A stretch of 64,000 bases of DNA, from assembly GCA_024641335.1 (NCBI GenBank), contig JAHEDG010000010.1, forward strand, positions 9,910-73,909, in the 5' to 3' direction. Below, one piece after another: positions 15,892 through 47,856 of this stretch. Both the position numbers and the translations under genes were made by a program. Numbering within the stretch: the first letter of the stretch is position 1; each line of letters starts with the position of its first letter. This DNA comes from Candidatus Zixiibacteriota bacterium. Its GTDB lineage: Bacteria; Zixibacteria; MSB-5A5; UBA10806. The notes under the pieces are model-generated. The model searched no databases. It saw only the letters and a program-made list of their open reading frames with translations, and was not told the DNA's origin.

Positions 15892-18518
15892 TTGTTTTCC
15901 TCCGGAAAGTCCGGCAAGCTCTTGAGTTTTTCCTTAAGCTGGTCGAGAGACGTTTGAATATCCATATTATCCTCGAACTGTTTTCTAAATTTATCGATGA
16001 GGGAATCTGCCCGGGTAATATGGCCGTCTCGATAATATAATACCGCCAGATTATTGAGCGCGGAAAAAGAGTCGGGGTATTTGGACAGAACAATCACCAG
16101 TATTTTTTCGGCGGCCTCGAATTCCTGATCCATAATCAGCTCCTGAGAAATCGCCAGATAGATCTTTTCACCTTCAGGAGAATCGCATATGATTTCGGGG
16201 ATCCGGTCGATCTCTCCGCTCAAGGCAAATATTTTAGCTACATAAGCCCTGGATTGCCAGGGAGAGTCGTCGGAGCTGAGATTAAAGGCCAACTCGGCTA
16301 TCTTGACCGCCGAATCGGGCTCTTGCTGTTCTAAATAAGTTTCGGAGATTTTAAGCATAGCGACTATATAATTGGCGATAAGTCTTTTATCGTTTTCATC
16401 TTTTATTACCGAAGGGTCGGCGATACCTCTGAAGTTGGCCGGATTCCCCAACACCTTCATCCCGATCTCGGGTTCGACCCTATCCTTACCGGATGTTTCC
16501 ACTACCCTTAGGGCCATTCCTTCCATAATCAGATGATCGTCGAGGCCCAGACGGTTATCTTCGGAAACAGTTATGGCAAAATAAACCGGTATGTTCCAGC
16601 TGTCGTTACGGATATTGGTGACGATATGCTGGACCATCTGATCCTGCACTCTCCAGATTCCGGGGTAATCGGTGAATCTCTTCGGCTGCAGCTTGTCGAT
16701 TTCATCATCGCTGATACTGATCGGGACGTTCATTTGGTCTTTCAGCTGGTGAACATACCAGGACGTGTTGAGCAGGCTGAGGTTAACGACGCGCACGTCC
16801 AGACGCACTTTTTCGACCTCTTGAATATACCATAGCGGAAAAGTATCGTTATCTCCATTGGTGAAGAGGATACCGTTTTGGGCGCATGATTCCAGAATGT
16901 TTTCGGCATAATCGCGAGGGATAAAATTGCCCAGTCTGCTGTTATGCTGATAATTGGCATAAACGGTGTTGAAGGCCAGAAGGATAGCCACCAGCACAGC
17001 TGCGGCAAACGCCGGGATAAGCGCCGCGGCGCGCAATTTAAATTTATCGGCCAGGCCTCCCAGCCATTGGAGAAACATGGCTATTCCCATTCCGATGATA
17101 ATACCGTAGTACATATATCCGGGCGTGAAGAAGTAATCTCTGTTTCGGACCTCGGCGATGGGGGCAATGGCTGTATTGTAAGCGCCGTCAGAGAAGTTCA
17201 TGTACAGCATCAGTCCGATAGTGCCTATCAGGAACGAAATGAGCATGAAGGATCCTTCAGGGCCTGCCCGCCTGGACGATTCATATAACCCGTAAAAACC
17301 GATGATCAGAATATAGAATATCGGCAGGCTGAGACTGAATTCCGGGCTGGATGAACCATTACTTTTTCCTTTATCGGAGGCTTTGTACAGGGTGATTTTC
17401 TGATCGGGCGAGGCATACTGGGAGTTGAAATAGCCCAGAAGCCCGAACCTGGGATGAGCTATGAGTTGATTGCGCCAGCTTGCCCGACGTTGGAGCATGC
17501 GAGTAATCATCGATTCCTGTCCGTATTGTTTTCTTTCGAGAAAACCTTTGAAGCGATTGAAGGTGGCGGGATCGTTTTCGTTGATAGCCGGCTTCTGAGA
17601 GGCTCTGATGGGAATATACATTTGGGATGAAAACCCGATAACCGCCGAGATCATGACGAGTAAAGCGGTTCCCCAGGCGGCGGCCGCTGTACGTTTGAGA
17701 AGGCGATAAGCGGTTACGCTTCCGGTAATCATCAGGGCGAGGACGAAAATGCAGGCGAACGATTCGAGTTCAAAGGCGGCGATATCGATACCCAAAATAC
17801 CCAGAAGAGGCGTTTGTACCGGGGCGGCAAACAGTATGAACATTGACATAACTATCCAGACCGGCCAACGTTTTAACCCTGATTTTAAGAAATCATAATA
17901 AGCCAGATATAAAATCATGGGGATCAGGACCAGGAATACGGTCATGTGCACGCCCAATGACAACCAGAGCAGGTAGGAGATGAGAATCAGAAGTCTGTCA
18001 TTGCCGGGGCGGTCGATATTCTCGGCCCAGATAAAGGCCAGGTAATTGATAAGGAGCATGAGCAACATAGCCAGCGCGTAGACCTCGGCTTCGACCGCGC
18101 TCGACCAGAAGGTAGAGGAGAATCCCATAATAAGAGCGCCGCACAGCGCTCCGATACCGAGTCCGTATTTGGAGAGACCATTGGGGATCTTCGGACTACC
18201 GTTCAGAGCGATCCGGATTATCAGCCAATAGGCGACGACAACAGAGGCAGCCGCGCTCAGGACCGAGATAAGGTTGACCCTGACGGCAATATCGCCGGCT
18301 ATCGGGAGCAAAGTGAACAATCGTCCGATGATTATAAATAGCGGGTAACCGGGCGGATGTGGTATGCCCAGGATATAGGACGAAGCGATAAATTCTCCGC
18401 AATCCCAGAAGGAAGTTGTGGGAGCTTTGGTTATGTAATAAATGATAAGGCTGATAAATCCCGCTGCCAGGGATAAGATGAGGAAATATTTGTCTTTATA
18501 AAGCTTCATCAGCGTCAA
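15888..18518 (-). CDS. DUF2723/TMEM260-like GT-C fold membrane glycosyltransferase with C-terminal TPR repeats
   Basis: 876 aa. The N-terminus has FWDCGEFIASSYILGIPHPPGYPLF (acidic first-loop motif of PMT/ArnT-type GT-C enzymes; resembles DUF2723), followed by more than 10 TM helices. The C-terminal soluble region (…GDNDTFPLWYIQ…) carries TPR-like repeats. Confidence 0.6.
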   Translation of the reverse strand: MTLMKLYKDKYFLILSLAAGFISLIIYYITKAPTTSFWDCGEFIASSYILGIPHPPGYPLFIIIGRLFTLLPIAGDIAVRVNLISVLSAAASVVVAYWLIIRIALNGSPKIPNGLSKYGLGIGALCGALIMGFSSTFWSSAVEAEVYALAMLLMLLINYLAFIWAENIDRPGNDRLLILISYLLWLSLGVHMTVFLVLIPMILYLAYYDFLKSGLKRWPVWIVMSMFILFAAPVQTPLLGILGIDIAAFELESFACIFVLALMITGSVTAYRLLKRTAAAAWGTALLVMISAVIGFSSQMYIPIRASQKPAINENDPATFNRFKGFLERKQYGQESMITRMLQRRASWRNQLIAHPRFGLLGYFNSQYASPDQKITLYKASDKGKSNGSSSPEFSLSLPIFYILIIGFYGLYESSRRAGPEGSFMLISFLIGTIGLMLYMNFSDGAYNTAIAPIAEVRNRDYFFTPGYMYYGIIIGMGIAMFLQWLGGLADKFKLRAAALIPAFAAAVLVAILLAFNTVYANYQHNSRLGNFIPRDYAENILESCAQNGILFTNGDNDTFPLWYIQEVEKVRLDVRVVNLSLLNTSWYVHQLKDQMNVPISISDDEIDKLQPKRFTDYPGIWRVQDQMVQHIVTNIRNDSWNIPVYFAITVSEDNRLGLDDHLIMEGMALRVVETSGKDRVEPEIGMKVLGNPANFRGIADPSVIKDENDKRLIANYIVAMLKISETYLEQQEPDSAVKIAELAFNLSSDDSPWQSRAYVAKIFALSGEIDRIPEIICDSPEGEKIYLAISQELIMDQEFEAAEKILVIVLSKYPDSFSALNNLAVLYYRDGHITRADSLIDKFRKQFEDNMDIQTSLDQLKEKLKSLPDFPEENK

Positions 18519-30602: not shown

Positions 30603-31718
30603 TCAGGTTTTTGCGGTCATCCGGTCGTAGAGTTTTTGCTCTTCAGCCGACATATTCCCCGGTACTCGTATATCTACAACCACGATTTGATCTCCCTGCC
30701 TTTTTCCAGCTGTCAATCCGAGTCCCTTGAGTCTGAATTTGGATCCCTGTTTGGTCCCGGGCGGGATTTTGACTTCGGCTTTATCGCCTTTTACTGTCCG
30801 AACCCTGACCCTGGTTCCATTGACCGCCTGATTTAATTCAATAACTATTTTGCAGAATATATTCAAACCCTCTCTCCAGAAGAAATGATCGCCTTTTATA
30901 TCAACCCGAAGATACAGATCTCCCGGAACGCCTCCGTTTCCCCCGGGATTGCCGAGTCCTTTTAATCTGATTTTTTTTCCCGCTTCGGCGCCAGCGGGGA
31001 TATTGACAGCAATTTCTCTCGGACGGGTTACCGATCCGGCTCCCCTGCATTTTTTGCATAATTCGCCGGTGATAATGCCTCGTCCCAGGCAACGCGGGCA
31101 GGGTCGTGAGACGGCGAAATTACCTTGAGTAAAGGTAATCATTCCACGGCCGTGGCAATCGGGGCATGGTGTCCTGGCGGATCCGGGGCGGGAGCCAGCG
31201 CCTTTGCAATCATTACAAACCTCGGTTATATTGAGTTTCAGCGAAGCCTTCCCTCCTTTGGCGGCGACCGCAAAAGGTATGGTTAGATCGGCGTAAAGAT
31301 CGTCTCCTTGTTGAGCACCACCTGCCTGTCCGAATCCGGGGCTTTTCCCGAACCCCCTGATATTGTCGCCAAAAAGGGATGAGAAGATATCGGCGAATGA
31401 TCCGAACCCTCCGGATTGTCCGAAGCTGGAGGAAATATCCTCAAAATTGAAGCCTTGAGCGGCTGCGCCCCGTCCGGAGCGAGCTGAATCGAAACCCTCG
31501 AAGCCGCCGTATTTTTTCATCTGGTCATATTGCGACCGTTTACTCTGATCGGAGAGAGTTTCGTTGGCTTCTGAAATCTCCTTAAATTTGGCCTCTGCCC
31601 GCTTATCACCGGGGTTGGCGTCGGGATGGTATTTCTTTGCTAGTTTCCGATAGGCCTTTTTTATCTCTTCGCCGGAGGCAGCTTCGGGCACGCCCAGTAT
31701 TTTATAATAGTCATTCAT
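30603..31718 (-). CDS. dnaJ: chaperone DnaJ (Hsp40)
   Basis: J domain with HPD (YHPDANPGD), G/F-rich linker, four CxxCxGxG repeats and C-terminal CTD I/II. Confidence 0.9.
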
Positions 31719-32302
31719 CAGCTTACTAAAATAGTAGCGTTTATGATGTAATTGCCATCCCGGAAGACCAACTTATCGTTATTTCTGATCCCGGGTTTGA
31801 TAGTCAGTCGGCTTTTGCCGGTTCCCTCGATCATACCTTTCCCATGGCATTCTCCGCATGTAGAGAATACTGTGCCGCCAAAACCGAAACATCTATGGCA
31901 GATAATTTCTCTGGGGATATTCAGCTCGATATTAATCCCGTTCCGTGACTCTTTGGGTGAAATCGGGATATCGACATCAATTTTCGATTTTCGGTCCAAG
32001 CCTAACCGCCGGGATAGAACATCGACAAGATCATCGAAAACATCAACCGGCCCGGATTTCAGAACAGGGACTATCCGTCTGAACGGCTCTCCCTTGAAAG
32101 GTGTGCGGCTTAGTTTCAAGTCATAGGGTTTTCGACGTTCGGGATCAATTAATGTTTCGTAAGCAGTCCTAATTTCAAGAAAAGCGGTGTGGTCTCCCCC
32201 TGTATCGGGATGATAGATCCTGGCCAGCCTTCTATAAGCTGTCTTTATCTCCTTTGCGGAGGAGCCCTGAGAGATTTTCAGCAAGGAATAATGAGTTTTC
32301 AT
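31718..32302 (-). CDS. J-domain protein with a single CxxCxGxG pair (mini-DnaJ), translationally coupled to dnaJ
   Basis: 194 aa. J domain with HPD (YHPDTGGD), then CHRCFGFGG and CGECHGKG (one Zn centre). It has no G/F region or CTDs. Its stop overlaps the dnaJ ATG by 1 nt. Confidence 0.7.
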
Positions 32303-35343: not shown

Positions 35344-35543
35344 TTTTTCTCCTTTTTAAAGGTTCATTTAAGCTACCGCTATAAGGAGGTCAAAAAGCGT
35401 GCCAATCGACATTTGGAAACGATAAGGCATTATAAGATGATAAGATATGAAATTGGCTTTATCATATGCAAAATATTAATTCTGGCCTTCATGCCTTAAT
35501 GACAGTATGAATCGCCATTATGACATGCGACTGTCAAAATGGC

Positions 35544-37715
35544 TTATAAATTTTCTCTGAGACCCAGAACTATTTTAGCGGTATTGGAAAGTAAGTCTTT
35601 TTTGAACAAAGACTTGGTAAAGCTTTTACGGGAGTATTCCTCGAGTTTTCCAACGGCAGTTTCGTCGCCGATGCGGTAGAGGGCTTTAATTATAGCGACT
35701 TGGATTTCCTCTTTGTTCTTTTTGGAGATACCAAGTTCATCGAAAAGAGAGTCGTTTTCGAAAATTTCAATAAGTAGATCTCGTGATTGAGAGTCTCCGA
35801 TCCTGCTGAGGGATGCGACAGCCAGCACCCGGCAATCGTCGATGGTTTTGAATATATGCATAAGTCTTTGGATCATATCTGGATGTCCAGATAGTCCCAT
35901 GGCGATAATAGCGACTTTCCGAACTTCAAACTCGGAATCGGAGGATAGTTTTTCGAGGAGTTTTCCGGTACCTGCCGCTGTCATCCCTTCGAGGGTCTTG
36001 ACTATCTCCATTCTTACCCGGATAATAGGCCATCCGGCCATAAGTTCCAGATACGGCAGAGCTTCCTCGGCGTTGATATCTTTCAATACCCGCAGGATAT
36101 TTCTGTAGAAATACCACTTTTCGTCCGATACCAGGCCGCCGTCGTATTTTCCCACCTCTTCGCCCAGAATACCGGTTAGAACTTCGGCGGATTCCTTTTT
36201 CATATTAACCAGTAGCTTTATGATCCTGGATCTGACATTAATATCCGGATGAGTAATTTTTGAGGCCAGAATTTTGACAATGGCCCTGGAGCCGAGATTG
36301 CCGAAGGCTTCAAAGAAATTGCCGACCTCATCGCTCCAATCCTGTTCGAGCAGTTCGTTCATGGTATCTTCGAGGAGCGTCGACTCGCTGATATCGAGAA
36401 GATTTTTCAAAGCCAGCTTTCGTTTGCTTTCCTGCTGCATGCGATCATCGGCCAGTCCTTTGAGGGTTCCGACTATATATTTCAGTTCTTCCCATCGTTT
36501 TCTTTTCAGCGATTGCCAGGCCATTTGCGAGGCCAGTTCCACAGGTTCGAGAGTATCGTTGGGAGATAGCGCTATCCTGACCACGTCGCGGCAAAGCGCT
36601 CCGAATTCGGAATGAAAACCTCCGCCGGAAAGAACTTCGCTGGCGGCGATTATCAGATTCAGACCCTGTTGCCGAAGTTCGATAGTCGGACCGTTGATGG
36701 AGCGGAGAAGTTCTTCGATCAGGTCGGTCAGATATTCATTTTGTTTATCAGCGGCCAGCTTGAAAACTATTTTTTTGAGTTCTCCGGGATTTACCAGCGA
36801 CGGGTCGGAGTTTTTGAGGATATCCAAGATATTTTCGGATTCCCGGAAGGCGCGGAGCTTGACCACCGATGTTTTATCGAAGATCTCTTCCAGAACAGCA
36901 TCGGGAGCTCCGACTCTTTTGAACAGCTGGTAGATATGATGGAGGTTTCCACCGGCGTCTTTTCTCGACAGATAATCCTTGAATAAACTGTTCAATCCCG
37001 AGAGCATGGTCTTATCCATCTCATCGTCAAGCCAGTTGGTCGAGAGGACAATATTCTCGATCAATTCTGCCGCGCTATCCCTGTCCATTTGAAGCAAAGT
37101 TTCTTTGAAATATCCGGTAAGGAAGCGCAGGCGTATATCGACATTGAGATATCCGGCCACATCGTCATCGGTTTTGAGACGTCCCATATAATAGGCTCCG
37201 ATGATATTTTGATTTTTGGATATGAGCTGTTTTATTCTACGGCTGAGGGATTTCAGATCAGAATCGCCGGGAGTATCAGGACCTTCGAAGCGAAATAAAT
37301 TCGGCGGGGCGCCGATATTAACCGAGACCGAATCGATATTATTGGATTTAAGCATTCTCTCAAGTGAATCATCGCGAGGGCCGGATTTAGCGATAAGACC
37401 GCTGAGCAGGTTATAGAGATCTCCTATATTGATATTGGAGCGGATAGCTATATTGCTCAAGTTATGTTTTTTCATGTCCATAGCCAAACCGGAAACATAT
37501 ACGGAATCGTCGAGCAATATTCCTTCGACCAGAAGCCGTTCTTTATAGAGCTCTATTGTAAAGCTATGTTTGAAGGAGAATATCACATTCAAAGCGTCAA
37601 GGGGCTTTTTCAGTGTCTCCTGGGTGACCGGATGTCCCAGAGGATACATGGAAAGTCTTCTCGAGCTTCCGTAGAGATGACGCAGGATTTCGAGACTTTG
37701 GGCTTTAATATCCAT
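35544..37715 (-). CDS. large soluble protein with C-terminal HEAT/armadillo-like repeats (function unknown)
   Basis: About 720 aa with no TM. The C-terminal third shows HEAT-like repeats (…HPDINVRSRIIKLLVNM…, …DSEFEVRKVAIIAMGLSGHPDM…, …VAIIKALYRIGDETAV…). The start is taken at the second Met (37715) to remove the overlap with the upstream gene. Confidence 0.45.
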   Translation of the reverse strand: MDIKAQSLEILRHLYGSSRRLSMYPLGHPVTQETLKKPLDALNVIFSFKHSFTIELYKERLLVEGILLDDSVYVSGLAMDMKKHNLSNIAIRSNINIGDLYNLLSGLIAKSGPRDDSLERMLKSNNIDSVSVNIGAPPNLFRFEGPDTPGDSDLKSLSRRIKQLISKNQNIIGAYYMGRLKTDDDVAGYLNVDIRLRFLTGYFKETLLQMDRDSAAELIENIVLSTNWLDDEMDKTMLSGLNSLFKDYLSRKDAGGNLHHIYQLFKRVGAPDAVLEEIFDKTSVVKLRAFRESENILDILKNSDPSLVNPGELKKIVFKLAADKQNEYLTDLIEELLRSINGPTIELRQQGLNLIIAASEVLSGGGFHSEFGALCRDVVRIALSPNDTLEPVELASQMAWQSLKRKRWEELKYIVGTLKGLADDRMQQESKRKLALKNLLDISESTLLEDTMNELLEQDWSDEVGNFFEAFGNLGSRAIVKILASKITHPDINVRSRIIKLLVNMKKESAEVLTGILGEEVGKYDGGLVSDEKWYFYRNILRVLKDINAEEALPYLELMAGWPIIRVRMEIVKTLEGMTAAGTGKLLEKLSSDSEFEVRKVAIIAMGLSGHPDMIQRLMHIFKTIDDCRVLAVASLSRIGDSQSRDLLIEIFENDSLFDELGISKKNKEEIQVAIIKALYRIGDETAVGKLEEYSRKSFTKSLFKKDLLSNTAKIVLGLRENL

Positions 37716-37720
37716 AGCTG

Positions 37721-38863
37721 CTACTCCTCCGGAAGTCCGAAACAATAGAGGTTCATATCCTCGCCGACTACAAATATTTTATTCTGGCAGGTTATGGGCC
37801 GAGTGGAGATCATGCCGTCGGTTTTGAATTTGTTTTTGACCAGGCCGCTGGCCTTATCGACAAAATAGACATTGAAATCGATGCTTGTAAATACAGCCAT
37901 TTGTTCGGTAAGAGCCGGCCCTGCCTTGACCGGTCCGGCGATCCTGTTTTTCCAGACAATATCACCGGTTTCGAAATCGAGCCGGACGATAAAACGGTTA
38001 TTGGTTCCGAAATACACTCCTTGGCCATCAGAGGCAATCGGTCCGTAGACCGGCAACTTCAAATCATGGTACCAGACAGTTTGGCCTGAGACCAAATTTA
38101 CTCTGGCAGCCTGGCCATCGGCCGAGCAAAAGATGACCTGATCTTCGACAATAACCGGGGCGTTTCTGATTCTCGCGCCGGTATCGAAGCTCCATAGCAG
38201 TCGTCCGCTCCGGGGATCGAAACATTCCAGGACGCCGTCATCCGGGAAGATAAGAATTCCGAGTTCGGAACCGGAAACGGGCGCGGAAACGGTCCGATCG
38301 ATTTTTCTATCCCAGATTCGTTTACCTTGTGAGATATCGAAGCATCGCAAGTATCCCATACCATCCAACCAAATAAGTTTATCACCCAAGACCAGTGGTT
38401 CTCCGCCGGCTCCATTCAGATCGGCCTCCCAAAGCTGTTGGCGGTCAACCCAATTTTCCACCATCAAGCGGTATCCACCGATATTCAGGACAGCCATAGA
38501 ATCCGATATGACTACAGGAGCCATAACCGGCTCCTTAAAGCTTATTTCGGCATAAATATCGCCGTTATTAGCCGAAACAACATGGAGTTTATTATCGGGT
38601 GTGGAAATAAGCAGGAAACCTAACGCGCCTGTAGGTTCGATGTGCAGCGGATATTTGAATTTTCTGACCCAGAGCAATCCAGGCTGTTGGGAAAACGATA
38701 TATCGGAGTATGAAGATCTTTCGGGGCTACCTCCGCTATGATTCCAGAGGCAGCCATCCGGTCGATCTTTCAATACTATGGGGGCGGACGGCCCGCACCC
38801 GCAGGCGGCCGCTATTACCCCTCCCAGTATGACCAGCGAGAATGTTTTCTTTAGAAGTTCCAC
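37721..38863 (-). CDS. PQQ-like / BamB-like beta-propeller repeat protein with signal peptide
   Basis: 380 aa. N-terminal signal/lipobox-like segment (…AAACGCG), then repeated …G.V…D..TG…W motifs of PQQ-type propellers (BamB/YfgL-like). Confidence 0.65.
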   Translation of the reverse strand: MELLKKTFSLVILGGVIAAACGCGPSAPIVLKDRPDGCLWNHSGGSPERSSYSDISFSQQPGLLWVRKFKYPLHIEPTGALGFLLISTPDNKLHVVSANNGDIYAEISFKEPVMAPVVISDSMAVLNIGGYRLMVENWVDRQQLWEADLNGAGGEPLVLGDKLIWLDGMGYLRCFDISQGKRIWDRKIDRTVSAPVSGSELGILIFPDDGVLECFDPRSGRLLWSFDTGARIRNAPVIVEDQVIFCSADGQAARVNLVSGQTVWYHDLKLPVYGPIASDGQGVYFGTNNRFIVRLDFETGDIVWKNRIAGPVKAGPALTEQMAVFTSIDFNVYFVDKASGLVKNKFKTDGMISTRPITCQNKIFVVGEDMNLYCFGLPEE

Positions 38864-41709
38864 CCAAAAAAGAAATCAAAATCGTACTTGTTTTGCACCG
38901 ATTTAAAATCGGTACGCCTTGAGAAATCGAATCTCAGAACAGTAACATATCCCAGGGATGCCCGGATACCGAAACCGAGGCTTCCGACAACCCCCTTACT
39001 ACCATAATCGGGATTTTCGGCCATTTCTTTATTGGTTTCCCACGAATTTCCGACATCGAAAAACAGCGCTCCACGGATAGCCTGGAACCTCATATTGCCA
39101 AACGGGAATCCGATGAAGAGGTCGTTGACCAACGGAAAACGGATTTCATTATTGACCAACAGCATATTATTGGCGTAGAATTCCCTACGGGGATATCCTC
39201 TCAAAGACCAGCTTCCGCCGAGATAATATCTTTGTTTATCTTGCCCCGCGGAGTGCAGATACATGAACCTGGAAGCGTAAGCCGATGCCTGGCCGAGACG
39301 GAAATATCTGCGGAAGTCCACGTTGTAGGTGCTATTGTAGTAGTTGAGATCTTTCAGTCTGACCGATTGGGTCATTCCGATATTCACTCTGGTGCCCTCG
39401 ATCGGCCCGGTGGGATCCCAGATAGATGTATCTTTGATGTATGAAATAGTCATGGTACCGGTCGTCGCGTTAGTCCGCCTTGCGGGATCATTCGAAATAG
39501 TGGATTGTTTTTCCAGTTTACGCAGGTATAAAGAAGTTTCCAGTCTGCGGTAGCGAGAGATCGGATAGCTGGCGGCGAGAAGCCCTCCATAGGTTCTCTC
39601 GGCGACATATCCGTAGTAGTTTTCGGCGTATTCGTTGTAGAAATGGAAGATACCGGCTCCGAAATTAACTCTCCTGGTTTTATTCATATATGTCGCGCCG
39701 AAATTGACGCTGCTCAAAAAATCGGATTTGGTGTTGGCGGTATTGTAGAGCAGAAAATACCATTGGTGATTGCCCAGGATATCAGTCATAGCGAATTGGA
39801 GGCCTCCCATGGTTCCGCCGAGAGCGTCATAAGAGACCGCGGACTGGGCGATATCAAAGGAGAGTTGAGTTTTGTATTTGGCAGATCCCTGAGCAAGCTG
39901 GCCATCGAGTTTAGGCATTTTCCATGTTTCCCCTGCATTCCAGAGATCGGCAATCTCAACCGGTTCGTCAAGATCGTATTTTGAGCTGTCGGGCAGATCC
40001 ATTTTGTAGATATGGAATCCGAAATTTTGATAGGCTGAGAAGACTACGCTTGAATCTGAGGAGGCCAGCACGGGATCGAAGATACCTGTGACGAAATTGG
40101 TCAGCTGATGAGAGACGATCGAGCTCTCGGTCAGACGGTCGAGTATAAAGAGGTTCATAACGCCGGCGCGATCTGAACAGAAGACAATTCTCTTGTCGTC
40201 TTTGGTCCATTGCGGGTAGCTATCGATATGATCGCCGGATGTAAGGCCGGAGATTTTTCCCGAATCCAGATGATATAGATAGAGATTTCTGGCTCCATTT
40301 CGGCCGGAAATTCCCCTATCGGAGGAGAAGGCGATAAACTGTCCATCGTGCGAGAAAGAGGGGTTTTTATCGGTATAGATATCATTGGTAAGCCGGCTGA
40401 AGGAACTTGATTCGATATCGACCAGATAGAGATCGGATCGTCCTCCCCTGGTCATACCCTCTATCACAATGGAAGCTCCGTCTGGAGACCAGGCTGGCGA
40501 GGAGATAGCTATCAAGGAATCGCTTTTAATCTTATTGACTATTTTTCTCCGATCAGTATCGTAAATATACAGAGCATCGCTTTCCTGGTTTTTGGAGGCG
40601 AAAGCCAGCATGCCATCGTCATTGGCGTCAAGGCCGGATTCGGTGAAATGCAAAGATTCGAATTGTTCCGACCGTCCGCCTTTAATCAGTGTTTTGAAAT
40701 GGCTTTTTTCCCCTTCGAGAGGCATTTCGGCGATTTTGGAATAACCCATGCGGTAAGTTTTGAAGGCGATAAACTCTTTGGGCCCGTCAACGGTGTTTCT
40801 GGTAAAAATGGCGGGTTTGAGGTTATAACCGTCGCGGGTTAATTTATCGGCTATCCTGTCGGGCAGTTCCTGATCCTGCAGGTATGGATAGTAGGTTTTT
40901 TTAAGATCATACTCCCATTCGGCGCCAATTTCGGACAATGTTTTGCCGTAGGTGATCCTGATATTGTCGGAGAAGGTTTTTCCTTTCCACCAGTTATCAA
41001 AAAGATCAGCGAGTTTGTCATCTCCGTATGTTTCTCCGATATGTTTTAAGAGAGACTGTCCGACTTTATACATCAGGAATGTTCCTGAAATGCTGTAGAG
41101 TTCGTCGACCGAAACAATTCGACCGGAGATGGTCATATCGCGCATGAACATATCGGCCTGGCTATCCCATCCGTCAGACCAGTATTCGGCCAATCCTTCG
41201 GTAAACCAGAGCGGAGGAGTTGCGACGCTTGTTCTCCGGTGCATTTTTGCGACATAGGCGATTTTCTGCATGGTGAAAACATGGACCAGCTCGTGCCGGA
41301 CGACCTTGGCAAAATCAGCGAATGAACCGTTAAAAGGAATGACCACCCGCTGTTTGAAAAATTCGGTGAATCCAGCGACATTTTCAGGGAGAAGCCCGGG
41401 GATAATATTGGTTTGCTCGAAGAAAACCGGGGAGCTGTAAACGATGAAGGGGACTTTCTTTTCGATGGTATGGTTGAATTTTTCCTGAAGAAAGTCGTAT
41501 GATTCCTCGGCCAATTGAGCGGCGGCATCGGCGATTTCTTTCTCTTCCGGGTAGAAATATATATTAAAATGCTCGGTAGTCAGAACCTGCCAATCGAACC
41601 TGGTATACTGTATTTTGTTTTGTCCGAAATAATATTGGGCGTGCGAAGTTATTGCGGACAAAAGAATTAGGCAAATAATTCCGCTTGCTACCAGTAATCG
41701 CCGTTGCAT
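38851..41709 (-). CDS. multidomain outer-membrane protein: signal peptide, gluzincin-like HExxH domain, TolB/PD40-like beta-propeller repeats and a C-terminal Omp85-like beta-barrel
   Basis: 952 aa. Signal peptide MQRRLLVASGIICLILLSAITSHA. HELVHVFT followed about 30 aa later by FTEGLAEYW (HExxH…E). PD40-like repeats (PAWSPDGASIVIEG, NPSFSHDGQFIAFSSDRG, YPQWTKDDKRIVFCSDRAG). The C-terminus ends …FGIRASLGYVTVLRFDFSRR…DFDFFFGWNF, with the alternating pattern and terminal Phe of OMP barrels. 13-nt overlap with the propeller gene. Confidence 0.5.
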   Translation of the reverse strand: MQRRLLVASGIICLILLSAITSHAQYYFGQNKIQYTRFDWQVLTTEHFNIYFYPEEKEIADAAAQLAEESYDFLQEKFNHTIEKKVPFIVYSSPVFFEQTNIIPGLLPENVAGFTEFFKQRVVIPFNGSFADFAKVVRHELVHVFTMQKIAYVAKMHRRTSVATPPLWFTEGLAEYWSDGWDSQADMFMRDMTISGRIVSVDELYSISGTFLMYKVGQSLLKHIGETYGDDKLADLFDNWWKGKTFSDNIRITYGKTLSEIGAEWEYDLKKTYYPYLQDQELPDRIADKLTRDGYNLKPAIFTRNTVDGPKEFIAFKTYRMGYSKIAEMPLEGEKSHFKTLIKGGRSEQFESLHFTESGLDANDDGMLAFASKNQESDALYIYDTDRRKIVNKIKSDSLIAISSPAWSPDGASIVIEGMTRGGRSDLYLVDIESSSFSRLTNDIYTDKNPSFSHDGQFIAFSSDRGISGRNGARNLYLYHLDSGKISGLTSGDHIDSYPQWTKDDKRIVFCSDRAGVMNLFILDRLTESSIVSHQLTNFVTGIFDPVLASSDSSVVFSAYQNFGFHIYKMDLPDSSKYDLDEPVEIADLWNAGETWKMPKLDGQLAQGSAKYKTQLSFDIAQSAVSYDALGGTMGGLQFAMTDILGNHQWYFLLYNTANTKSDFLSSVNFGATYMNKTRRVNFGAGIFHFYNEYAENYYGYVAERTYGGLLAASYPISRYRRLETSLYLRKLEKQSTISNDPARRTNATTGTMTISYIKDTSIWDPTGPIEGTRVNIGMTQSVRLKDLNYYNSTYNVDFRRYFRLGQASAYASRFMYLHSAGQDKQRYYLGGSWSLRGYPRREFYANNMLLVNNEIRFPLVNDLFIGFPFGNMRFQAIRGALFFDVGNSWETNKEMAENPDYGSKGVVGSLGFGIRASLGYVTVLRFDFSRRTDFKSVQNKYDFDFFFGWNF

Positions 41710-41904
41710 TAGAACCCCCTGTCTACTATAGAGTTAACCGAATACGGCTTGACGGTGTTCCCCGTCCTCGACATTACTGGCGAAAAGAAAGGCGAGCAAA
41801 AAACAACCATTAATAATCTAACCCTCACGTCAAATTTAATTAACATTTGAAATAAGTCAACATAAATGTTTGCACAGTGTTGTAAGGTCCGATTGCATAA
41901 GGAT

Positions 41905-42633
41905 TTATCCGGCCAAATCGGCCTTTTTACTTCTTTTTCCGATGATAATTAGTATTAATATGGATATTTCATAGAGGATATATAGCGGCAAGCCCATCAT
42001 AGCCATAGAAAAAACATCGGGAGGTGTGACCACGGCGGCGATTACGGCGATAGCGACAACCGCGTATCGTCTACCCTTGCCGAGCATTCCGGCGTTAATA
42101 ATGCCTAATTTGCCCAGAAATAGGGCGATAATCGGTGTCTGAAAGACCGCTCCATACGCCAGGGTAGTCCACATGACGAAATTCAGGTATTCATTTACAG
42201 TTAGCACCGGGGTGACGTTTTCCGGCGCGATATTGAGCAGGAAGGATATGGTAAACGGAAGAACCCAGACAAAGCACATCGCCGCCCCGCCCAGGAATAG
42301 AACTGATGAGATAAAAACCAGCGGGATAATGAATTTCTTTTCATGCTCATAGAGACCGGGCATGACAAAACACCAGGCCTGGTAAACCGTAATTGGTATA
42401 GAGACGAAGATACCGGCCAGAAAGGAAAGTTTGATTCTGACGGTAAAACCTTCGGAGATTTTGAGGAAATTCAAATCGATTTTGCCATCGGGAACCGCTT
42501 TTTCGAGCGGATAGCGGAGCCAATGGAAGAGAAAATCGGAAATTAGGTAGCAACCGATAGAGGCGATGATCATAGCGGCCAGGATCTTGATAATTCTCCA
42601 GCGCAATTCCTCGAGATGTTCCAGGAATGGCAT
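41905..42633 (-). CDS. tatC: twin-arginine translocase subunit TatC
   Basis: MPFLEHLEELRWRIIK… plus 6 TM helices. The track start at 42750 overlaps nrdR; the start is taken at the internal MPFLEHL (42633). Confidence 0.85.
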   Translation of the reverse strand: MPFLEHLEELRWRIIKILAAMIIASIGCYLISDFLFHWLRYPLEKAVPDGKIDLNFLKISEGFTVRIKLSFLAGIFVSIPITVYQAWCFVMPGLYEHEKKFIIPLVFISSVLFLGGAAMCFVWVLPFTISFLLNIAPENVTPVLTVNEYLNFVMWTTLAYGAVFQTPIIALFLGKLGIINAGMLGKGRRYAVVAIAVIAAVVTPPDVFSMAMMGLPLYILYEISILILIIIGKRSKKADLAG

Positions 42634-42640
42634 TTCCCCG

Positions 42641-43414
42641 CTAATTCTGGCTGCCAAGTTTTTCCTCCTCGGAGAGGCTTTCCACTTCTCTGGTAAATTC
42701 GGAGACGTCTTTGAATTTTCTATAGACCGAGGCGAAACGGATATAGGCAACCTCGTCGATTTCTCTGAGGCGTTTCATGATTAGTGTACCGAGTTCGGAG
42801 GAGGAGACCTCGCGACGTTTAGCCAGCGATTCGATTATCTCTTCGGCCAGACTTTCTATTTTCCGTTGGGATACGGGTCGTTTACGGAGAGCAATACTGA
42901 TGGAAGATATCAGTTTTTCACGTTTGAACGGTTCGTATCGGCCGTTAGCCTTGATCACCTGGAGTGATCCGGGCAGGGCTTTCAGCGAGGTAATGAATTC
43001 ATCCTTATCGGAGAAACGTTGATGGGCGGCGGCGTAACGGACATAAGAGACCTCGTCGAGCTTGAGCAGTTCTTTTTGCACGAGTTCGCCGATTTGACCG
43101 CTGTTTATCCCTCCGGAGTATTCGTTTTTAATTCGGGCAGTGAGATCGGAGATGACTGTTTGTATCCGTTCCCTGGAGACCGGTCTGTTTTTCAAAGCCA
43201 TATCGATACTGCCGGCAATTTTCTCGATCATGAAGGGTTCCCGCCGTCCATCGGCTTTGATTACCGTTGGGGAGGGTGTTTCCACCTGTTCATAGGTAGT
43301 GAACCGGTTGCCGCAGGCCAGGCATTCGCGTCTTCTGCGAATGGCACGACTATCCGCGGCCGGACGAGAATCAATAACCTTATCGCCGTCGGCGTTGCAG
43401 GCGGGGCAGATCAT
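42641..43414 (-). CDS. nrdR: transcriptional repressor NrdR with a duplicated (tandem) ATP-cone domain
   Basis: MICPACN…IDSR…IRRRRECLACGNRFTTYE zinc ribbon, then two consecutive ATP-cone units (VIKADGRREPFMIEKIAGSI…YVRYAAAHQRF and VIKANGRYEPFKREKLISSI…YIRFASVYRKF). Canonical NrdR is about 150 aa with one cone; this is about 258 aa. Confidence 0.75.
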   Translation of the reverse strand: MICPACNADGDKVIDSRPAADSRAIRRRRECLACGNRFTTYEQVETPSPTVIKADGRREPFMIEKIAGSIDMALKNRPVSRERIQTVISDLTARIKNEYSGGINSGQIGELVQKELLKLDEVSYVRYAAAHQRFSDKDEFITSLKALPGSLQVIKANGRYEPFKREKLISSISIALRKRPVSQRKIESLAEEIIESLAKRREVSSSELGTLIMKRLREIDEVAYIRFASVYRKFKDVSEFTREVESLSEEEKLGSQN

Positions 43415-44172
43415 GAGGAAATCATCACTTTCCATCCGAGATCGGCGCCGAAGTGACTATCGGCCCGTCCCAGGTTGATCGCTATTTCCAGGTAACCCAT
43501 GCTTCCGATATAAGCCAGCGGTTTACCCCGCGGAACATCGGAGAAAGCTCTGACCAATGGGATATCGTCCACTCCGGGCAGCTTGATTCTGCTACTCGGT
43601 TTGATCAACTCCCGGGATAAATTTGTAATCAGGTTGCCGAAATTGTCAATATCAATCACGACGCCTTCGATACCACTTTTTCCGATTGCCGGTAAAGGTG
43701 TTTTTAAGAGCACCGGATTATCTATGATATCCCCCAGATCGGCCGGTTTTTCCCCGGCGGCTATCAAGGCGGCAGCCGGCGCGAATATATCCCGTCCGTG
43801 GAAAGTAGCCGATATTTCAGCAGACGGCAGCGATCCGATATTTATTTCCCGCCATTGGGAATCAAGGGATCTTTCCATGATTCCGGTGAAGATGCCGTTA
43901 TCGGGTCCGACGTAATAGTATCGCCCGTCAAAACCTACAAGGGCCCTGCGACTGGATCCGACAGTGGGATCGACAACCAGCAGATGGATTGTTTCGGCAG
44001 GGTAATAGCGATAATATCTGGCCAGGGCAAAAGACGATTTTACGACCCCGGTCAGATCGTGGGTAACATCGATAATCTCGGCCTGGGGTGAGATCGATTT
44101 GATAACCCCCTTCATGGCGGCGGGGTAACCGTCGACTGTGCCGAAATCAGTAGCGAGAGTAATAATGCTCAT
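43411..44172 (-). CDS. SAM hydroxide adenosyltransferase family protein (DUF62; chlorinase/fluorinase-like fold)
   Basis: MSIITLATDFGTVDGYPAAMKGVI…LLVVDPTVGSSRR…YYVGPDNGIF, the signature N-terminus of DUF62. Confidence 0.75.
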   Translation of the reverse strand: MSIITLATDFGTVDGYPAAMKGVIKSISPQAEIIDVTHDLTGVVKSSFALARYYRYYPAETIHLLVVDPTVGSSRRALVGFDGRYYYVGPDNGIFTGIMERSLDSQWREINIGSLPSAEISATFHGRDIFAPAAALIAAGEKPADLGDIIDNPVLLKTPLPAIGKSGIEGVVIDIDNFGNLITNLSRELIKPSSRIKLPGVDDIPLVRAFSDVPRGKPLAYIGSMGYLEIAINLGRADSHFGADLGWKVMISS

Positions 44173-44592
44173 CTATATTTTTATCAGGTTTAGGCCGGTT
44201 TGCTCGTCCCGACCTCGGCTAATTACTGTCTCTCCGGACCTGATATAGAATTCGCCGGTAACCGCGACAATCGCGCTGAACAGGTGGCCTCCGAAAACAG
44301 AGCATTGCTTATCGGAAATAACCGCGTGGCAATGCAGTATGGTCTCGGAGCCGAGTTTGGCGAAATTGCCGGAAAGATTCAACAGCTCGTGATCGCCGTC
44401 GAATTCCCTTTTATGGTACTCTCCCCCGACCAGATCGTAGTAGCCGAGAGTGATTTTCTTTAAAGCCCCGATCCCAACAACAGTGCCGGAACTAATATTA
44501 TTATCGGCGGCGAATTTCGCCAGGGTCGATACGACCTCGTCGCCGATATCACAGCGAACAAAGAAACCGTCCTTTATTGTTTTGCTTTGCAC
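44173..44592 (-). CDS. PPC/DUF296 domain protein
   Basis: 139 aa; …GTVVGIGALKKITLGYYD…HCHAVISD…FGGHLF…, the PPC (plants-and-prokaryotes-conserved) fold. Confidence 0.55.
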   Translation of the reverse strand: MQSKTIKDGFFVRCDIGDEVVSTLAKFAADNNISSGTVVGIGALKKITLGYYDLVGGEYHKREFDGDHELLNLSGNFAKLGSETILHCHAVISDKQCSVFGGHLFSAIVAVTGEFYIRSGETVISRGRDEQTGLNLIKI

Positions 44593-44931
44593 CTACTCCC
44601 CTTTGCTGTCCGATTCAATACCGCAGGATGATCTGACCCAATCGGCGTATTCAGCTGACACGGCGGCGACATCGAAGGCGATTACCTCCGGGTAGTTATA
44701 GGAATGACTGGCTTTGACATATTTCTCGATGTCTCCGAATTTCGAGCGGATCGATTTAATGATCAACAGCCATTCGTCCTGATTTTCAATCTTCCCCTGC
44801 CAATAAAAGACTGATCTCACTCCGGAAATATTCACGCAGGCGGCGAGATTTTTTTTAACGAGGCCGTCGGAAATCAATACCGCCTCTTCCTCCGTGACGC
44901 AGGTTACCATTATGATTATCAGATCTTCCAT
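44593..44931 (-). CDS. cutA: divalent-cation tolerance protein CutA
   Basis: …AACVNISGVRSVFYWQGKIENQDEWLLIIKS…HSYNYPEVIAFDV, typical CutA1. The start is taken at MEDLIIIMVTC rather than the over-extended track ORF. Confidence 0.7.
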   Translation of the reverse strand: MEDLIIIMVTCVTEEEAVLISDGLVKKNLAACVNISGVRSVFYWQGKIENQDEWLLIIKSIRSKFGDIEKYVKASHSYNYPEVIAFDVAAVSAEYADWVRSSCGIESDSKGE

Positions 44932-45138
44932 TTTATCGCCTCGTGTTTCAGCCGATCCTCGGCGGGCGGCATGCTTTCTTCGACCGGAGGTCGAAGTCGG
45001 CATTGGCCGAGACTTTTCAATTCAAGATCCTCAATTATTCGAACATTTCCTTCCGGTATATTGTTTCTTTCGCCGCTATACGGGTGAAAATGCCCAATCC
45101 CGCCGTAGCGGGATAAAGCATGCCGCCCAGATAAAAGC

Positions 45139-45444
45139 CTACTTCCTGACCTCCCGACCGATAATCTTCTCGATATCGGCGATTTTGCCCTTGAGCCGGC
45201 CTTTGGCCCCGGCGCGATCATCGATAGAGATCTTGGTGTTGACTCGCTCGGAGCTTTCTCTAAGCTTATTATGGCAGGCTCTGATCAGGCTCATAACCTC
45301 GTCCCAGTCGCCTTCCACGATTGTGCCCATGGCGGTAGTCTGGTAATCGAGACCGGATTTATCGATCAGGTCGATCACCCCGGCCACGTCCTTGCCCAGC
45401 GCGGTGCCCTTATCCAATGGAAAAGTAGAGAACATTGCCAGCAT
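45139..45444 (-). CDS. MTH1187/YkoF-family (DUF77) small thiamine-binding-like protein
   Basis: 101 aa, MLAMFSTFPLDKGTALGKDVAGVIDLI…, the ferredoxin-like fold family MTH1187/YkoF. Confidence 0.65.
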   Translation of the reverse strand: MLAMFSTFPLDKGTALGKDVAGVIDLIDKSGLDYQTTAMGTIVEGDWDEVMSLIRACHNKLRESSERVNTKISIDDRAGAKGRLKGKIADIEKIIGREVRK

Positions 45445-45632
45445 TAAGCCCTCCTTTCGGTTTCCCCTTAAACGCTGTAAGTCTCGCCTTCAGCTTACGA
45501 CTATCGGGATGTCGTCAGGAAAGGATTCCTGACAACTCTTAGGAACGACCCGCAGAGAATGCGCTCGTTGGCTATTGCGGTATTTATGCGCTTCAGGATG
45601 CCGTTTCGCTTCATCCTGACAGATAAAGATAC
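45445..45632 (-). promoter_or_regulatory. structured 188-nt 5' leader (candidate cis-regulatory RNA, class unassigned) carrying two copies of the GTCAGGA…TCCTGAC hairpin
   Basis: Minus-sense RNA folds into at least three stable hairpins: CAGGAUG-aagcgaaacgg-CAUCCUG, GUCAGGAA-uccu-UUCCUGAC, and a distal UUGCGGUA/UACCGCAA pairing. The SD AGGAGGG is 7 nt before the AUG. No TPP-riboswitch core (CUGAGA, …GCGUAGGGA) could be identified. Confidence 0.3.
45592..45619. repeat. REP-like palindromic element, copy A (TCAGGATG…CATCCTGA)
   Basis: An 8-bp inverted repeat around an 11-nt loop, 13 nt past the glyA stop. A related GTCAGGAA-aggatt-CCTGAC hairpin lies at 45513-45532. Confidence 0.45.
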
Positions 45633-46880
45633 CTACCGCAATTCCGGGTAAAGCGGGAATTTGGCGCAGAGAGTAGAGACCTCCCGGCGCACATCGGCGA
45701 TGACTGAATCATCTTTCATGTTCTTGATCACACGGGAGATCATTTTGCCGATCTGCATCATTTCATCAACTCCCATGCCGCGGGTGGTGACAGCCGGAGC
45801 GCCGATTCTTATGCCCGATGTTACAAACGGTTTTTCCGGATCGAACGGCACGGTATTCTTGTTGACCGTGATGGCGGCCTTCTCCAACGCTTTCTCGACT
45901 TCTTTGCCGGTAATCCCCTGGCCGACGAATGAGAGCAGCAAAAGATGCGTATCAGTTCCGCCGGAAACCACGTGGAAACCATCGTCGAGCAAAGTCCGGG
46001 CCAGAGTTTTGGCATTGGCAATAATCTTTTTCTGATATTCTTTGAATTCCGGCTTCAGGGCCTCTTTGAAAGCCACGGCTTTGGCTGCGATGATATGCAT
46101 TAGCGGGCCGCCCTGGATACCGGGCATGACCTCGCGGTCGAGGTCTTTGGAATATTTCTCCTTGCACATAATCATCCCGCCGCGCGGACCACGCAGGGTT
46201 TTATGGGTTGTCGTAGTCACGAAGTCGGCGTACGGAACCGGCGACGGATGCAGACCGGCAGCCACCAGACCGGCGATATGGGCTATATCGACAACCAGAT
46301 AGGCGCCGACCTCGTCGCAAACCTCGCGGAATTTCTTGAAATCGAGTACGCGCGGGTAGGCAGAGGCTCCGGCCATAATCAAGCTGGGCCCGACTTCAAC
46401 AGCTCTTTTCATCAGTTGGTCGTAATCGATGGTTTCTGTTTCTTTGCTAACCGAATACGGCTCGACTTTGTACAACTTGCCTGAGAAATTCACCGGATGG
46501 CCGTGGGTAAGATGTCCGCCATGGGAAAGATTCAATCCCATGATCGTATCGCCCGGTTTCAATACAGTGAAATAGACAGCCATATTGGCCTGCGAGCCGG
46601 AGTGCGGTTGAACATTGACATGTTCGCAACCGAAAAGCTCCCTGGCGCGGGCTCGGGCCAGATTCTCGGCATCGTCGACAAAAGCACAGCCGCCGTAATA
46701 ACGTTTGCCGGGATACCCCTCGGCGTATTTGTTGGTCATGACCGATCCCATCGCCTCCATCACAGGATAGGAAACGAAATTCTCAGAGGCAATCAGTTCG
46801 AGGCCGTCATGCTGACGGTCGACCTCGCCGCACATGGCCTGATAGATTTCAGGATCGGCGTCTTTTAAATATTCAAACAT
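45633..46880 (-). CDS. glyA: serine hydroxymethyltransferase
   Basis: 415 aa with PLP-lysine region …[15 protein letters not shown]…, the canonical SHMT. Confidence 0.95.
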
Positions 46881-46932
46881 CGAATTCCCTCATCGCAAAA
46901 ATTACTTAGCAATTGCGAGCAGGCTTACGTTA

Positions 46933-47856
46933 TCAGTTAACATAGGTAAGCCAGCCGAATTTATCGTACTTGCTGTTCTCAAAAATCGAGAAAAAAGCTT
47001 TCTGCAATTTTTCGGTGAGAGGCCCCCGCTTTCCCTGGCCGATCTTGATACCGTCGATGGTGCGGATAGGGGTTATCTCGGCAGCGGAACCTGTGAAAAA
47101 GACCTCGTCGGCGATATACAACGCCTCTCTGGGAATCTCTTCCTCGATGACCTTTATTCCCAGGTCATCGGCCAGCCGCATGACAGTGTTCCTGGTAATA
47201 CCGGGCAGAATGGACGATCCGAAAGGAGGTGTAATGATAGCGTTATCCCTGACAATGAAAATATTCTCGCCGGAACCCTCGGAAACATGACCGAAGACAT
47301 CGAGAGCGATGCCCTCGACATAACCGTGAGCCCGAGCCTCCAGCCTAATCAGCTGTCCATTCATATAGTTGGCGGATGATTTTGCCATGGCCGGCATTGT
47401 TCCCGGAGCGTTGCGCCGCCAGGACGAAACGCCGACATCAACACCCTGCTCCAGAGCCTCGGGACCGAGGTATTTGCCCCAGGGCCAAACGGCTATGGAA
47501 ACATCGATAGGCACGCCGGTAGGATCGACGCCGAGATGACTGTAGCCTCGATAAACCAGCGGGCGAATATAGCAGGCCTCCATCTTATTGACCCTGATAA
47601 GTTCTATGATGGCCTTATTAATATCTTCTCTCGTGAAAGGGATCTCCATACGATAGATTTTGCAGGAGTTAAACATCCGATCGGTATGTTCCGCCAGCCT
47701 GAAAATGGCCGGGCCTTTGGGTGTTTTATAGCATCGAGCGCCCTCAAAAATACCAGACCCATAATGCAGAACGTGAGAGAGGACGTGCACTTTGGCGTCA
47801 TCCCAATCTACGAGCTTACCATTCATCCAGATCTTATCTACTTTTTCAAAAGCCAT
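46933..47856 (-). CDS. ilvE: branched-chain amino acid aminotransferase (fold-type IV PLP enzyme)
   Basis: 307 aa; …HVLHYGSGIFEGARCY…EVFFTGSAAEITPI… class IV aminotransferase motifs. Confidence 0.9.
   Translation of the reverse strand: MAFEKVDKIWMNGKLVDWDDAKVHVLSHVLHYGSGIFEGARCYKTPKGPAIFRLAEHTDRMFNSCKIYRMEIPFTREDINKAIIELIRVNKMEACYIRPLVYRGYSHLGVDPTGVPIDVSIAVWPWGKYLGPEALEQGVDVGVSSWRRNAPGTMPAMAKSSANYMNGQLIRLEARAHGYVEGIALDVFGHVSEGSGENIFIVRDNAIITPPFGSSILPGITRNTVMRLADDLGIKVIEEEIPREALYIADEVFFTGSAAEITPIRTIDGIKIGQGKRGPLTEKLQKAFFSIFENSKYDKFGWLTYVN

Follow-up and report, generated by a model that had tools for sequence, protein, structure and literature searches.

An Omp85-barrel protein with a zinc-peptidase domain and a TolB-type propeller, and the lipoprotein gene conserved beside it, in Zixibacteria and related lineages

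Omp85 proteins are best known for inserting or translocating outer-membrane proteins, and it has recently been shown with PlpD that this scaffold can instead carry a periplasmic enzyme. The Omp85/TpsB superfamily has been split into ten subfamilies, one of which is the "WD40-Omp85" or "WD40-like" group (Heinz and Lithgow 2014, Front Microbiol 5:370, PMC4104836). In that classification, architectures combining PF07676 with PF01103 are found in the WD40-like subfamily (Table S2), and the "best aminopeptidase hit" column of Table S3 has matches at 98.7-99.4% confidence, namely with the M1-type structure 1z5h and with 4kxd and 4fgm. The authors proposed that the WD40-like fusion resembles BamA plus BamB, and suggested periplasmic roles for such fusions. 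A paper of 2024 refers to a subfamily with "divergent WD40 and peptidase domains" (PMC11358297). Here we analyze a locus of this kind in a stretch of 64,000 nucleotides (nt) from contig JAHEDG010000010.1 of a Candidatus Zixiibacteriota bacterium, hereafter the window; the names carried by close homologues likewise identify the organism as belonging to the candidate phylum Zixibacteria. It comprises three genes packed in an operon-like manner, which we designate A, B and C (table 1) and which encode an Omp85-barrel protein, a BamB-like lipoprotein and a HEAT-repeat protein, respectively. An earlier note on this DNA, made from the sequence alone, had described these three open reading frames (ORFs), and all of them are indeed present, on the minus strand.

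Gene A encodes an exported, POTRA-less member of the Omp85 superfamily, in which a gluzincin domain and a TolB-type propeller precede a BamA-type barrel. The Pfam models Peptidase_MA_2 (PF13485; residues 123-267, 43.7 bits against a cut-off of 32.4), PD40 (60.1 bits against 20.9) and Omp85 (PF01103; residues 669-952, 50.3 bits against 24) all match above threshold, as the earlier note had anticipated in proposing an HExxH module, a PD40/TolB-like propeller and a C-terminal barrel ending in FFFGWNF. The AlphaFold2 (AF2) model, built on 53 orthologues, is confident, with a predicted local distance difference test (pLDDT) of 81 and a predicted template modelling score (pTM) of 0.78. It shows a helical domain at residues ~41-290, followed in the DSSP string by ~24 strands over residues 295-571, consistent with six four-stranded blades, and, after a short low-confidence linker, by ~16 strands over residues 617-950. 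TolB is the best structural match for the six-bladed propeller (PDB chains at E 2e-14, Foldseek at E 6e-12). The Kyte-Doolittle profile peaks at residue 5 (2.14), within the sole hydrophobic segment of the protein.

No POTRA domain was detected in A (no PF07244 match at E <= 0.1 in Pfam), and only 45 residues of linker separate the propeller from the first barrel strand, an absence typical of WD40-like Omp85 proteins. By the match of its architecture to Tables S2 and S3 of PMC4104836, A is assigned to that subfamily, with which it shares PD40/WD40 repeats, the PF01103 barrel, the missing POTRA domains and an N-terminal region resembling M1-type aminopeptidases; A adds to it a phylum-level set of members, the Zixibacteria. 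The BamA equivalog model (NCBIfam TIGR03303) gives A 48.6 bits against a cut-off of 297, with the match limited to the barrel part (model positions 442-741). The possibility that A is the BamA of this organism was thus rejected, given this score and the lack of POTRA domains. The earlier note had set the architecture apart from those of BamA and TamA; it is not novel, having been catalogued in 2014 (PMC4104836).

The barrel itself is of the BamA type. Foldseek retrieved many barrel-only BamA chains with target-normalised template modelling scores (TM-scores) of 0.60-0.63, and when a profile of the A barrel is used the alignment to Fusobacterium nucleatum BamA runs from one end to the other (E 1e-14). 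Together with the strand count of the AF2 model, these matches agree with the barrel of 16 strands expected from the earlier note. In the alignment, GGSWSLRGY of A falls in register with GGGNSLRGY in L6, the FxDxG motif (F883, D885 and G887) in register with FADAG, and the C-terminal FFFGWNF of A against YFNMGQSF, including a glycine three residues before the end. The E. coli BamA counterparts of the first two motifs are VRGF and FWDMG, respectively. The glycine at -3 corresponds to the kink glycine in strand beta16 of BamA. Single-sequence PDB searches with the peptidase domain and with the barrel of A returned nothing useful.

The peptidase domain is classed with the clan MA gluzincins on its HExxH motif, its downstream glutamate and its score above the threshold of the family hidden Markov model (HMM). 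An exhaustive search of 1.84 billion cluster representatives gave 1353 clusters at 50% identity (E <= 1e-30). Among the candidates scored, 4507 database relatives of A were found at E <= 1e-5, a number which includes general PD40 proteins; the 120 relatives listed are near-full-length orthologues of 46-100% identity, and at least 583 matches come from species-representative genomes. Conservation was measured in the best 150 of the 1353 clusters, whose representatives are 31-46% identical to A. H139, E140, H143, W168, E171 and G172 are 100% conserved in the 145 representatives that cover them, the other five being N-terminal truncations which lack the catalytic region, and Y214 is 100% conserved in 147 of 147. 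The same residues are invariant in the 53 Zixibacteria orthologues. HExxH was therefore found invariant in orthologues, the outcome on which the earlier note had made its proposal depend. This absolute conservation of HExxH...E and Y214 suggests that the domain is intact for catalysis rather than retained as a scaffold. The L836-R-G-Y and FxDxG motifs of the barrel are 96-98% conserved in the 150 representatives, and the glycine at -3 is conserved too. Overall, conservation is highest in the peptidase core and the barrel and lowest in the propeller and the linker, the latter with column conservation of 0.27-0.32.

At the mature N-terminus of A, the segment F-G-x-N-K ... W is 94-99% conserved in the 150 representatives, on a par with the catalytic site, and is modelled as disordered (AF2 pLDDT 31-43); it could represent a docking or regulatory peptide.

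M1 aminopeptidases carry a GxMEN exopeptidase motif upstream of HExxH, and the zinc ligands follow the spacing HExxH-X18-E. In A, a conserved element, G113-F-T-E116, lies 23 residues ahead of H139 (G 99%, E/D 100%) and differs from GxMEN, and H143 and E171 are 28 residues apart, against 19 in HExxH-X18-E. None of the Pfam M1 models matches A, and M61 does so only weakly (E 0.0011, below its cut-off). E171 sits within W-F-x-E-G-L-A-E. This element and the tyrosine after HExxH, together with the G-F-T-E strand before it, are what we take to be a resemblance to M1/M61 aminopeptidases, and by that resemblance exopeptidase trimming by A is possible.

Gene B encodes a propeller of the PQQ_2 ("BamB") family (106 bits against a Pfam cut-off of 27.6), in agreement with the BamB/PQQ-like gene which the earlier note placed after A. 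PDB BamB chains match it at E ~1e-13, and its score with the BamB equivalog (NCBIfam TIGR03300; 95.2 bits) lies below the cut-off of 285.2. Thus, B is best described as a BamB-like member of the PQQ_2 family and not as a demonstrated BamB. A simple pattern identifies a lipobox (...VIAAA-C21) in B and a lipobox cysteine near the N-terminus of 65 of its 73 orthologues. The export signals of the trio are hence one N-terminal signal segment in A and the lipobox in B, with neither in C. Genes A and B share exactly 13 nt, GTGGAACTTCTAA, as the earlier note had reported and as is read directly from the sequence, so that the GTG start of B falls inside the final G-W-N-F-stop codons of A. An identical overlap occurs in 47 of 65 Zixibacteria loci, and B is accordingly taken to be translationally coupled to A.

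Synteny was compared in a Zixibacteria set (80 genome loci, almost all from Zixibacteria) and in a broader sample (72 loci with enough downstream flank). A B-like gene directly follows A in every Zixibacteria locus with enough flank (73/73). In the broader sample a PQQ_2/BamB-type ORF is the first downstream gene in 45 loci, while in 14, all of them high-G+C contigs (L139, L140, L142-L150, L160, L163 and L168; clade of 65-71% G+C), its place is taken by an unrelated lipoprotein of ~240 amino acids (aa) which overlaps the A homologue by 4 nt and carries a ...LLAGC lipobox. For this second lipoprotein neither Pfam nor NCBIfam gave a match, even with the threshold relaxed to E <= 1. The A-B pair also occurs in Marinimicrobia, in a Latescibacterota chromosome (L079), in a lineage with members variously labelled Zixibacteria, Latescibacterota or Gemmatimonadota, and in two further lineages. 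The synteny of A and B is therefore kept well beyond this genome. These counts indicate that the conserved unit consists of A and an outer-membrane lipoprotein, presumably translated from one message, and that the true conserved partner of A is the downstream lipoprotein gene and not the heat-shock genes. The pairing is not mentioned in the main text of PMC4104836 or in the citing papers checked. The invariant HExxH...E, the BamA-like seam motifs and the conserved, translationally coupled lipoprotein partner are new with respect to that work, which reports neither the invariant motif nor a downstream lipoprotein partner or translational coupling.

Other genes were seen beside A homologues. In two lineages the genes next after A-B encode first a PEGA-domain protein and then a propeller protein of the NHL/Vgb-lyase type (L090:12042-14211 and L091:10107-12127), and on an Eiseniibacteriota contig a gene for a similar propeller is oriented convergently to the A homologue (L085:9900-11195, opposite strand). 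These may be further components of the module. In one locus (L081) a PMT_2 glycosyltransferase gene stands directly 3' of the A homologue.

On balance, the domains and motifs lead us to favor A as an outer-membrane-anchored periplasmic zinc peptidase which acts with a lipoprotein partner. In this arrangement the barrel would sit in the outer membrane, with the zinc peptidase and the TolB-type propeller on the periplasmic side. The standard topology of Omp85 proteins, and the demonstration that the enzyme domain of PlpD stays periplasmic (PMC11116518), both argue for this placement of the N-terminal domains. B would be an outer-membrane lipoprotein, most likely in complex with A, and the pair would form a fixed proteolytic station beneath the outer membrane, at which unfolded polypeptides of the envelope would be trimmed or degraded, with stalled or misassembled outer-membrane proteins or other periplasmic clients as candidate substrates. 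The propellers of A and B might be platforms for binding or gating the substrate, and the barrel would provide the anchor and might also recognise beta-signals. A specific role of A-B in the quality control of outer-membrane proteins is put forward only tentatively. The suggestion of the earlier note, an outer-membrane-anchored protease or quality-control machine, is thus retained as the most plausible explanation for A and B, without its heat-shock link and without the HEAT-repeat protein.

Comparison with the closest described systems suggests a composite plan, in which A-B may function like BepA docked on BAM, the machinery for beta-barrel assembly, built as an enzyme on an Omp85 scaffold after the manner of PlpD. 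BepA, an HExxH zinc protease of the periplasm, docks on BAM and deals there, in quality control, with outer-membrane proteins that have stalled (PMC8423444, PMC13655028), and would be the closest functional analogy; in contrast to A, it is a separate soluble M48 protein with a TPR domain and no barrel fusion. PlpD shares with A an enzyme domain N-terminal to an Omp85 barrel (PMC11116518), and the periplasmic location of that domain in PlpD favors the idea of an Omp85 scaffold reused for new enzymatic functions. However, PlpD is a phospholipase which keeps its POTRA domain, forms homodimers and reportedly has no lateral gate, whereas A combines a metallopeptidase with a propeller, lacks POTRA, retains BamA-like seam motifs and has a lipoprotein partner gene. 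The pair BamA-BamB resembles A-B in the 16-strand barrel, the RGY and FxDxG motifs, the C-terminal Gly-x-x-aromatic and the PQQ-type propeller lipoprotein. Nevertheless, A lacks the POTRA domains on which BamB docks in BamA, and BamA has neither a peptidase nor a TolB-type propeller.

Several observations weigh against the proposed role of A-B. In the broader sample, 13 of the 72 loci (~18%), mostly of the most distant members, have something else downstream and no lipoprotein gene, so the lipoprotein partner may not be obligatory. The analogy to BAM is also limited, since the family has none of the POTRA domains with which characterised Omp85 proteins handle their substrates. Finally, the literature on WD40-like Omp85 proteins that we found consists of the 2014 classification and papers citing it, with no functional study of the architecture.

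A more specific and speculative scenario is that A and its lipoprotein constitute an Omp85 machine of a type not recognised before, which destroys, rather than assembles, outer-membrane proteins. Here polypeptides with a beta-signal would be captured at the BamA-like seam, formed by the first and last strands with the conserved kink glycine at the C-terminus; they would then be held by the two propellers and degraded or trimmed by the M1-like zinc peptidase in an ATP-free compartment. The N-terminal FGxNK...W segment would then be a regulatory plug or docking peptide. If so, a dedicated and widespread station for the disposal or processing of outer-membrane proteins would exist in Zixibacteria, Marinimicrobia, Latescibacterota and related lineages.

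The barrel motifs and the partner gene also bear on a different proposal, in which A is a specialised assembly factor, a BamA/TamA-like insertase for one class of client, with the propellers of A and B in place of POTRA domains as substrate docks and the peptidase domain used chiefly for chaperoning or maturation, in the way that BepA serves LptD. The retention of L6 RGY, FxDxG and the C-terminal G-x-x-aromatic is in keeping with this, and the pairing with a BamB-like lipoprotein mirrors BamA-BamB. We regard it as rather unlikely, nonetheless, since the absolute conservation of HExxH...E and Y214 argues for real catalysis, the POTRA domains and a BamA-level score are lacking, and the neighborhood contains no conserved client gene. 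This and the other alternatives weighed here are each less supported than an anchored periplasmic peptidase.

The propeller and the catalytic domain could instead point to nutrition: the peptidase and propeller of A would be exported through or beside the barrel in a type V-like manner and would digest extracellular proteins for a protein-fermenting organism, the propeller gating access so that only peptides reach the active site. Tricorn and S9 (DPP-IV) enzymes do place a propeller beside a peptidase domain, and that of A resembles theirs (a DPPIV_N match in Pfam, 1k32 in Foldseek, and precomputed Tricorn_N/Tricorn_2nd annotations); their catalytic domain, however, is a serine peptidase and not a gluzincin. 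The M1/M61-like catalytic domain is of a type typical of peptide trimming (Table S3, PMC4104836), and PlpD was itself first classed as a secreted "type Vd" passenger. That passenger was later shown to be periplasmic, and passage of a folded domain through a closed Omp85 barrel was judged energetically unfavorable. Moreover, an Omp85 barrel has its N-terminus on the periplasmic side, the invariant partner belongs to the BamB-type lipoproteins, which are periplasmic in known cases, and ~550 aa of globular peptidase and propeller are unlike the beta-helical passengers that fold outside the cell. Surface display of this kind is therefore quite improbable.

The TolB matches raise the alternative of a Tol-Pal-like tether or processor, with the propeller binding a Pal-like or peptidoglycan-associated lipoprotein while the peptidase trims at the interface of outer membrane and cell wall. 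TolB structures are the strongest sequence and structure matches of the propeller, relatives are annotated as "Tol biopolymer transport system component", and two other phyla, Marinimicrobia and Eiseniibacteriota, have the genes dapA and dapB, for peptidoglycan precursors, immediately upstream of the A homologue. On the other hand, only the propeller part of A matches TolB (116 bits against 343 for the equivalog, NCBIfam TIGR02800), the N-terminal, TolA-binding domain of TolB is absent from A in the NCBIfam comparison, propeller residues are its least conserved part, and the window holds no tol or pal genes nearby. Of the scenarios considered, we judge this the least probable.

The product of gene C appears to be a cytoplasmic HEAT scaffold added in Zixibacteria. 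It matches HEAT_2 (75.8 bits, Pfam), as expected from the large cytoplasmic HEAT-repeat protein of the earlier note, and no hydrophobic segment was found in it. In the AF2 model (pLDDT 85.5) an N-terminal alpha/beta domain (aa 1-135) with an invariant Y24-P-L-G-H28 precedes an all-alpha HEAT/ARM solenoid (aa 157-716), for which Foldseek retrieved only generic HEAT/ARM scaffolds (PP2A PR65, CAND1 and importins) and no functional lead. The most likely start is the ATG given in table 1, 5 nt past the stop of B and preceded by GGAGGAG; the database copy is likewise 723 aa long. A conserved S-R-R-L near the N-terminus was considered as a Tat signal, an idea which arose from the tatC gene upstream of A, and was rejected, as no hydrophobic region follows and the segment lies within the confidently folded alpha/beta domain. 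C is probably co-transcribed with A and B. It occurs downstream of B in 30 of 48 Zixibacteria loci and in only three loci of the broader sample, all Zixibacteria-like, and in a word-indexed search all its named relatives are Zixibacteria. This confinement places C outside the conserved module, contrary to the earlier note.

Downstream of the trio the order is hsp20, hsp20, dnaK, a J-protein gene and dnaJ, exactly as the earlier note had described, and it had envisaged a single envelope/proteostasis module with A, B and C. Such a module, spanning envelope and cytoplasm, would be co-regulated and induced by heat or folding stress, with C as a cytoplasmic repeat scaffold adjoining the chaperone genes. 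The adjacency is real within Zixibacteria, where hsp20 lies downstream in 36 and dnaK in 28 of 48 loci, more commonly than tatC lies upstream (9/59). In addition, no terminator-like site was found between C and hsp20, and so read-through transcription is possible. In contrast, hsp20, dnaK and dnaJ are all missing from the 49 loci of the broader sample whose downstream flank is at least 3 kb long, and within Zixibacteria the genes assort separately (12 loci have hsp20 but no C, and 6 have C but no hsp20). An intergenic gap always parts hsp20 from the preceding gene. In the window this gap measures 200 nt and contains a sigma54-type element (table 1), whose pattern TGGCACG-N4-TTGA precedes hsp20 in 16 of the 48 sequences compared (the window and 47 Zixibacteria loci) against a shuffle mean of 0.09, and in none of them on the opposite strand. 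This suggests sigma54-dependent control of small heat-shock and DnaK genes in Zixibacteria. The region is, furthermore, a conserved core housekeeping stretch, with SHMT, nrdR, tatC, SMC and PBP genes. Taken together, the absence outside Zixibacteria, the gap and the promoter-like element indicate that the chaperone block is an independently promoted neighbor, a unit which would have its own promoter and lie outside the A-B machine. The link of A, B and C to it seems positional only, and we abandon the joint module as very unlikely.

Gaps of about 200 nt flank the trio on both sides, that to tatC upstream being 195 nt. The minus strand carries almost every gene between 1 and 60 kb of the window; hence the shared direction of the trio and the chaperone genes, correctly reported in the earlier note, is uninformative, and it was dropped as evidence for a joint operon. 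A sigma-70-type promoter candidate precedes A (table 1), and it is weak evidence, because such sites are about as numerous in the region as expected from shuffling.

Table 1. Coordinates of the genes and features of the locus in the window.
Feature	Position	Strand	Basis or remark
Gene A, 952 aa	38851..41709	minus	ORF list
Gene B, 380 aa	37721..38863	minus	ORF list
Gene C, 723 aa	35544..37715	minus	ATG start; the ORF list instead has TTG at 37745 (733 aa)
Sec signal peptide of A, aa 1-24, putative cleavage between MQRRLLVASGIICLILLSAITSHA and QYY	41638..41709	minus	Sole hydrophobic segment; cleavage site read from sequence
Conserved mature N-terminal motif of A, aa 25-40, F28-G29-x-N31-K32 ... 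W40	41590..41637	minus	Alignment conservation
Clan-MA (gluzincin) zinc-peptidase domain of A, aa ~41-290	40840..41589	minus	Pfam PF13485
H139-E140-x-x-H143 of A	41281..41295	minus	
E171 of A	41197..41199	minus	
Six-bladed TolB/PD40-type propeller of A, aa ~295-571	39997..40827	minus	PD40 and TolB matches
Linker of A, aa 572-616, short, poorly conserved	39862..39996	minus	Low pLDDT
16-strand Omp85 barrel of A, aa ~617-952	38854..39861	minus	Pfam Omp85, Foldseek, profile
L6 motif L-R837-G838-Y839 in the barrel of A (position of R-G-Y)	39193..39201	minus	
Sigma54-type -24/-12 element, TGGCACGCTTTTTGAC, TGGCACG-N4-TTGA	35389-35404	minus	47 nt upstream of hsp20 (start at 35343)
Candidate sigma-70-type promoter of the trio, TTGACT-16 nt-TAAATT	41833..41860	minus	Consensus scan, 9/12 matches

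Upstream of the trio, the window (41905-47856) contains housekeeping genes that recur beside A homologues in distant lineages (L083, L085 and L089). Thus tatC, upstream of A in the window, is found two genes downstream in Marinimicrobia, and SHMT and nrdR, also upstream here, are downstream in L089. These recurring neighbors look like the remnant of an old neighborhood and not like a functional link. The NrdR-like repressor of the window (42641-43435, minus; 264 aa) has two ATP-cone domains after its zinc ribbon, whereas NrdR beside the A homologue of L089 is 149 aa long with the usual single cone. Within the chaperone block, a short J-domain protein of 194 aa (31718-32302, minus), with a J domain and a CxxCxGxG zinc-finger segment, is encoded between dnaK and the full-length dnaJ, which comes immediately after it; no grpE-sized ORF occurs between hsp20 and dnaJ in the window. 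Farther along, an 876-aa protein (15888-18518, minus) joins a TMEM260-like protein O-mannosyltransferase domain to C-terminal TPR repeats.

For the window itself, this analysis amounts to the correct annotation of a known subfamily whose architecture is in itself unsurprising. The A family, however, is large, spans several poorly studied phyla and is entirely uncharacterised, and the invariant catalytic site, the BamA-like motifs and the coupled lipoprotein make of it a concrete two-protein system, well bounded and experimentally tractable, at a time when the idea of the Omp85 barrel as an enzyme scaffold has only recently emerged. If A-B is a barrel-tethered quality-control protease, it would be a second clear case of the Omp85 scaffold being reused for enzymology, and would show in what way bacteria that lack a BepA/DegP-style system might keep watch over the assembly of their outer-membrane proteins.

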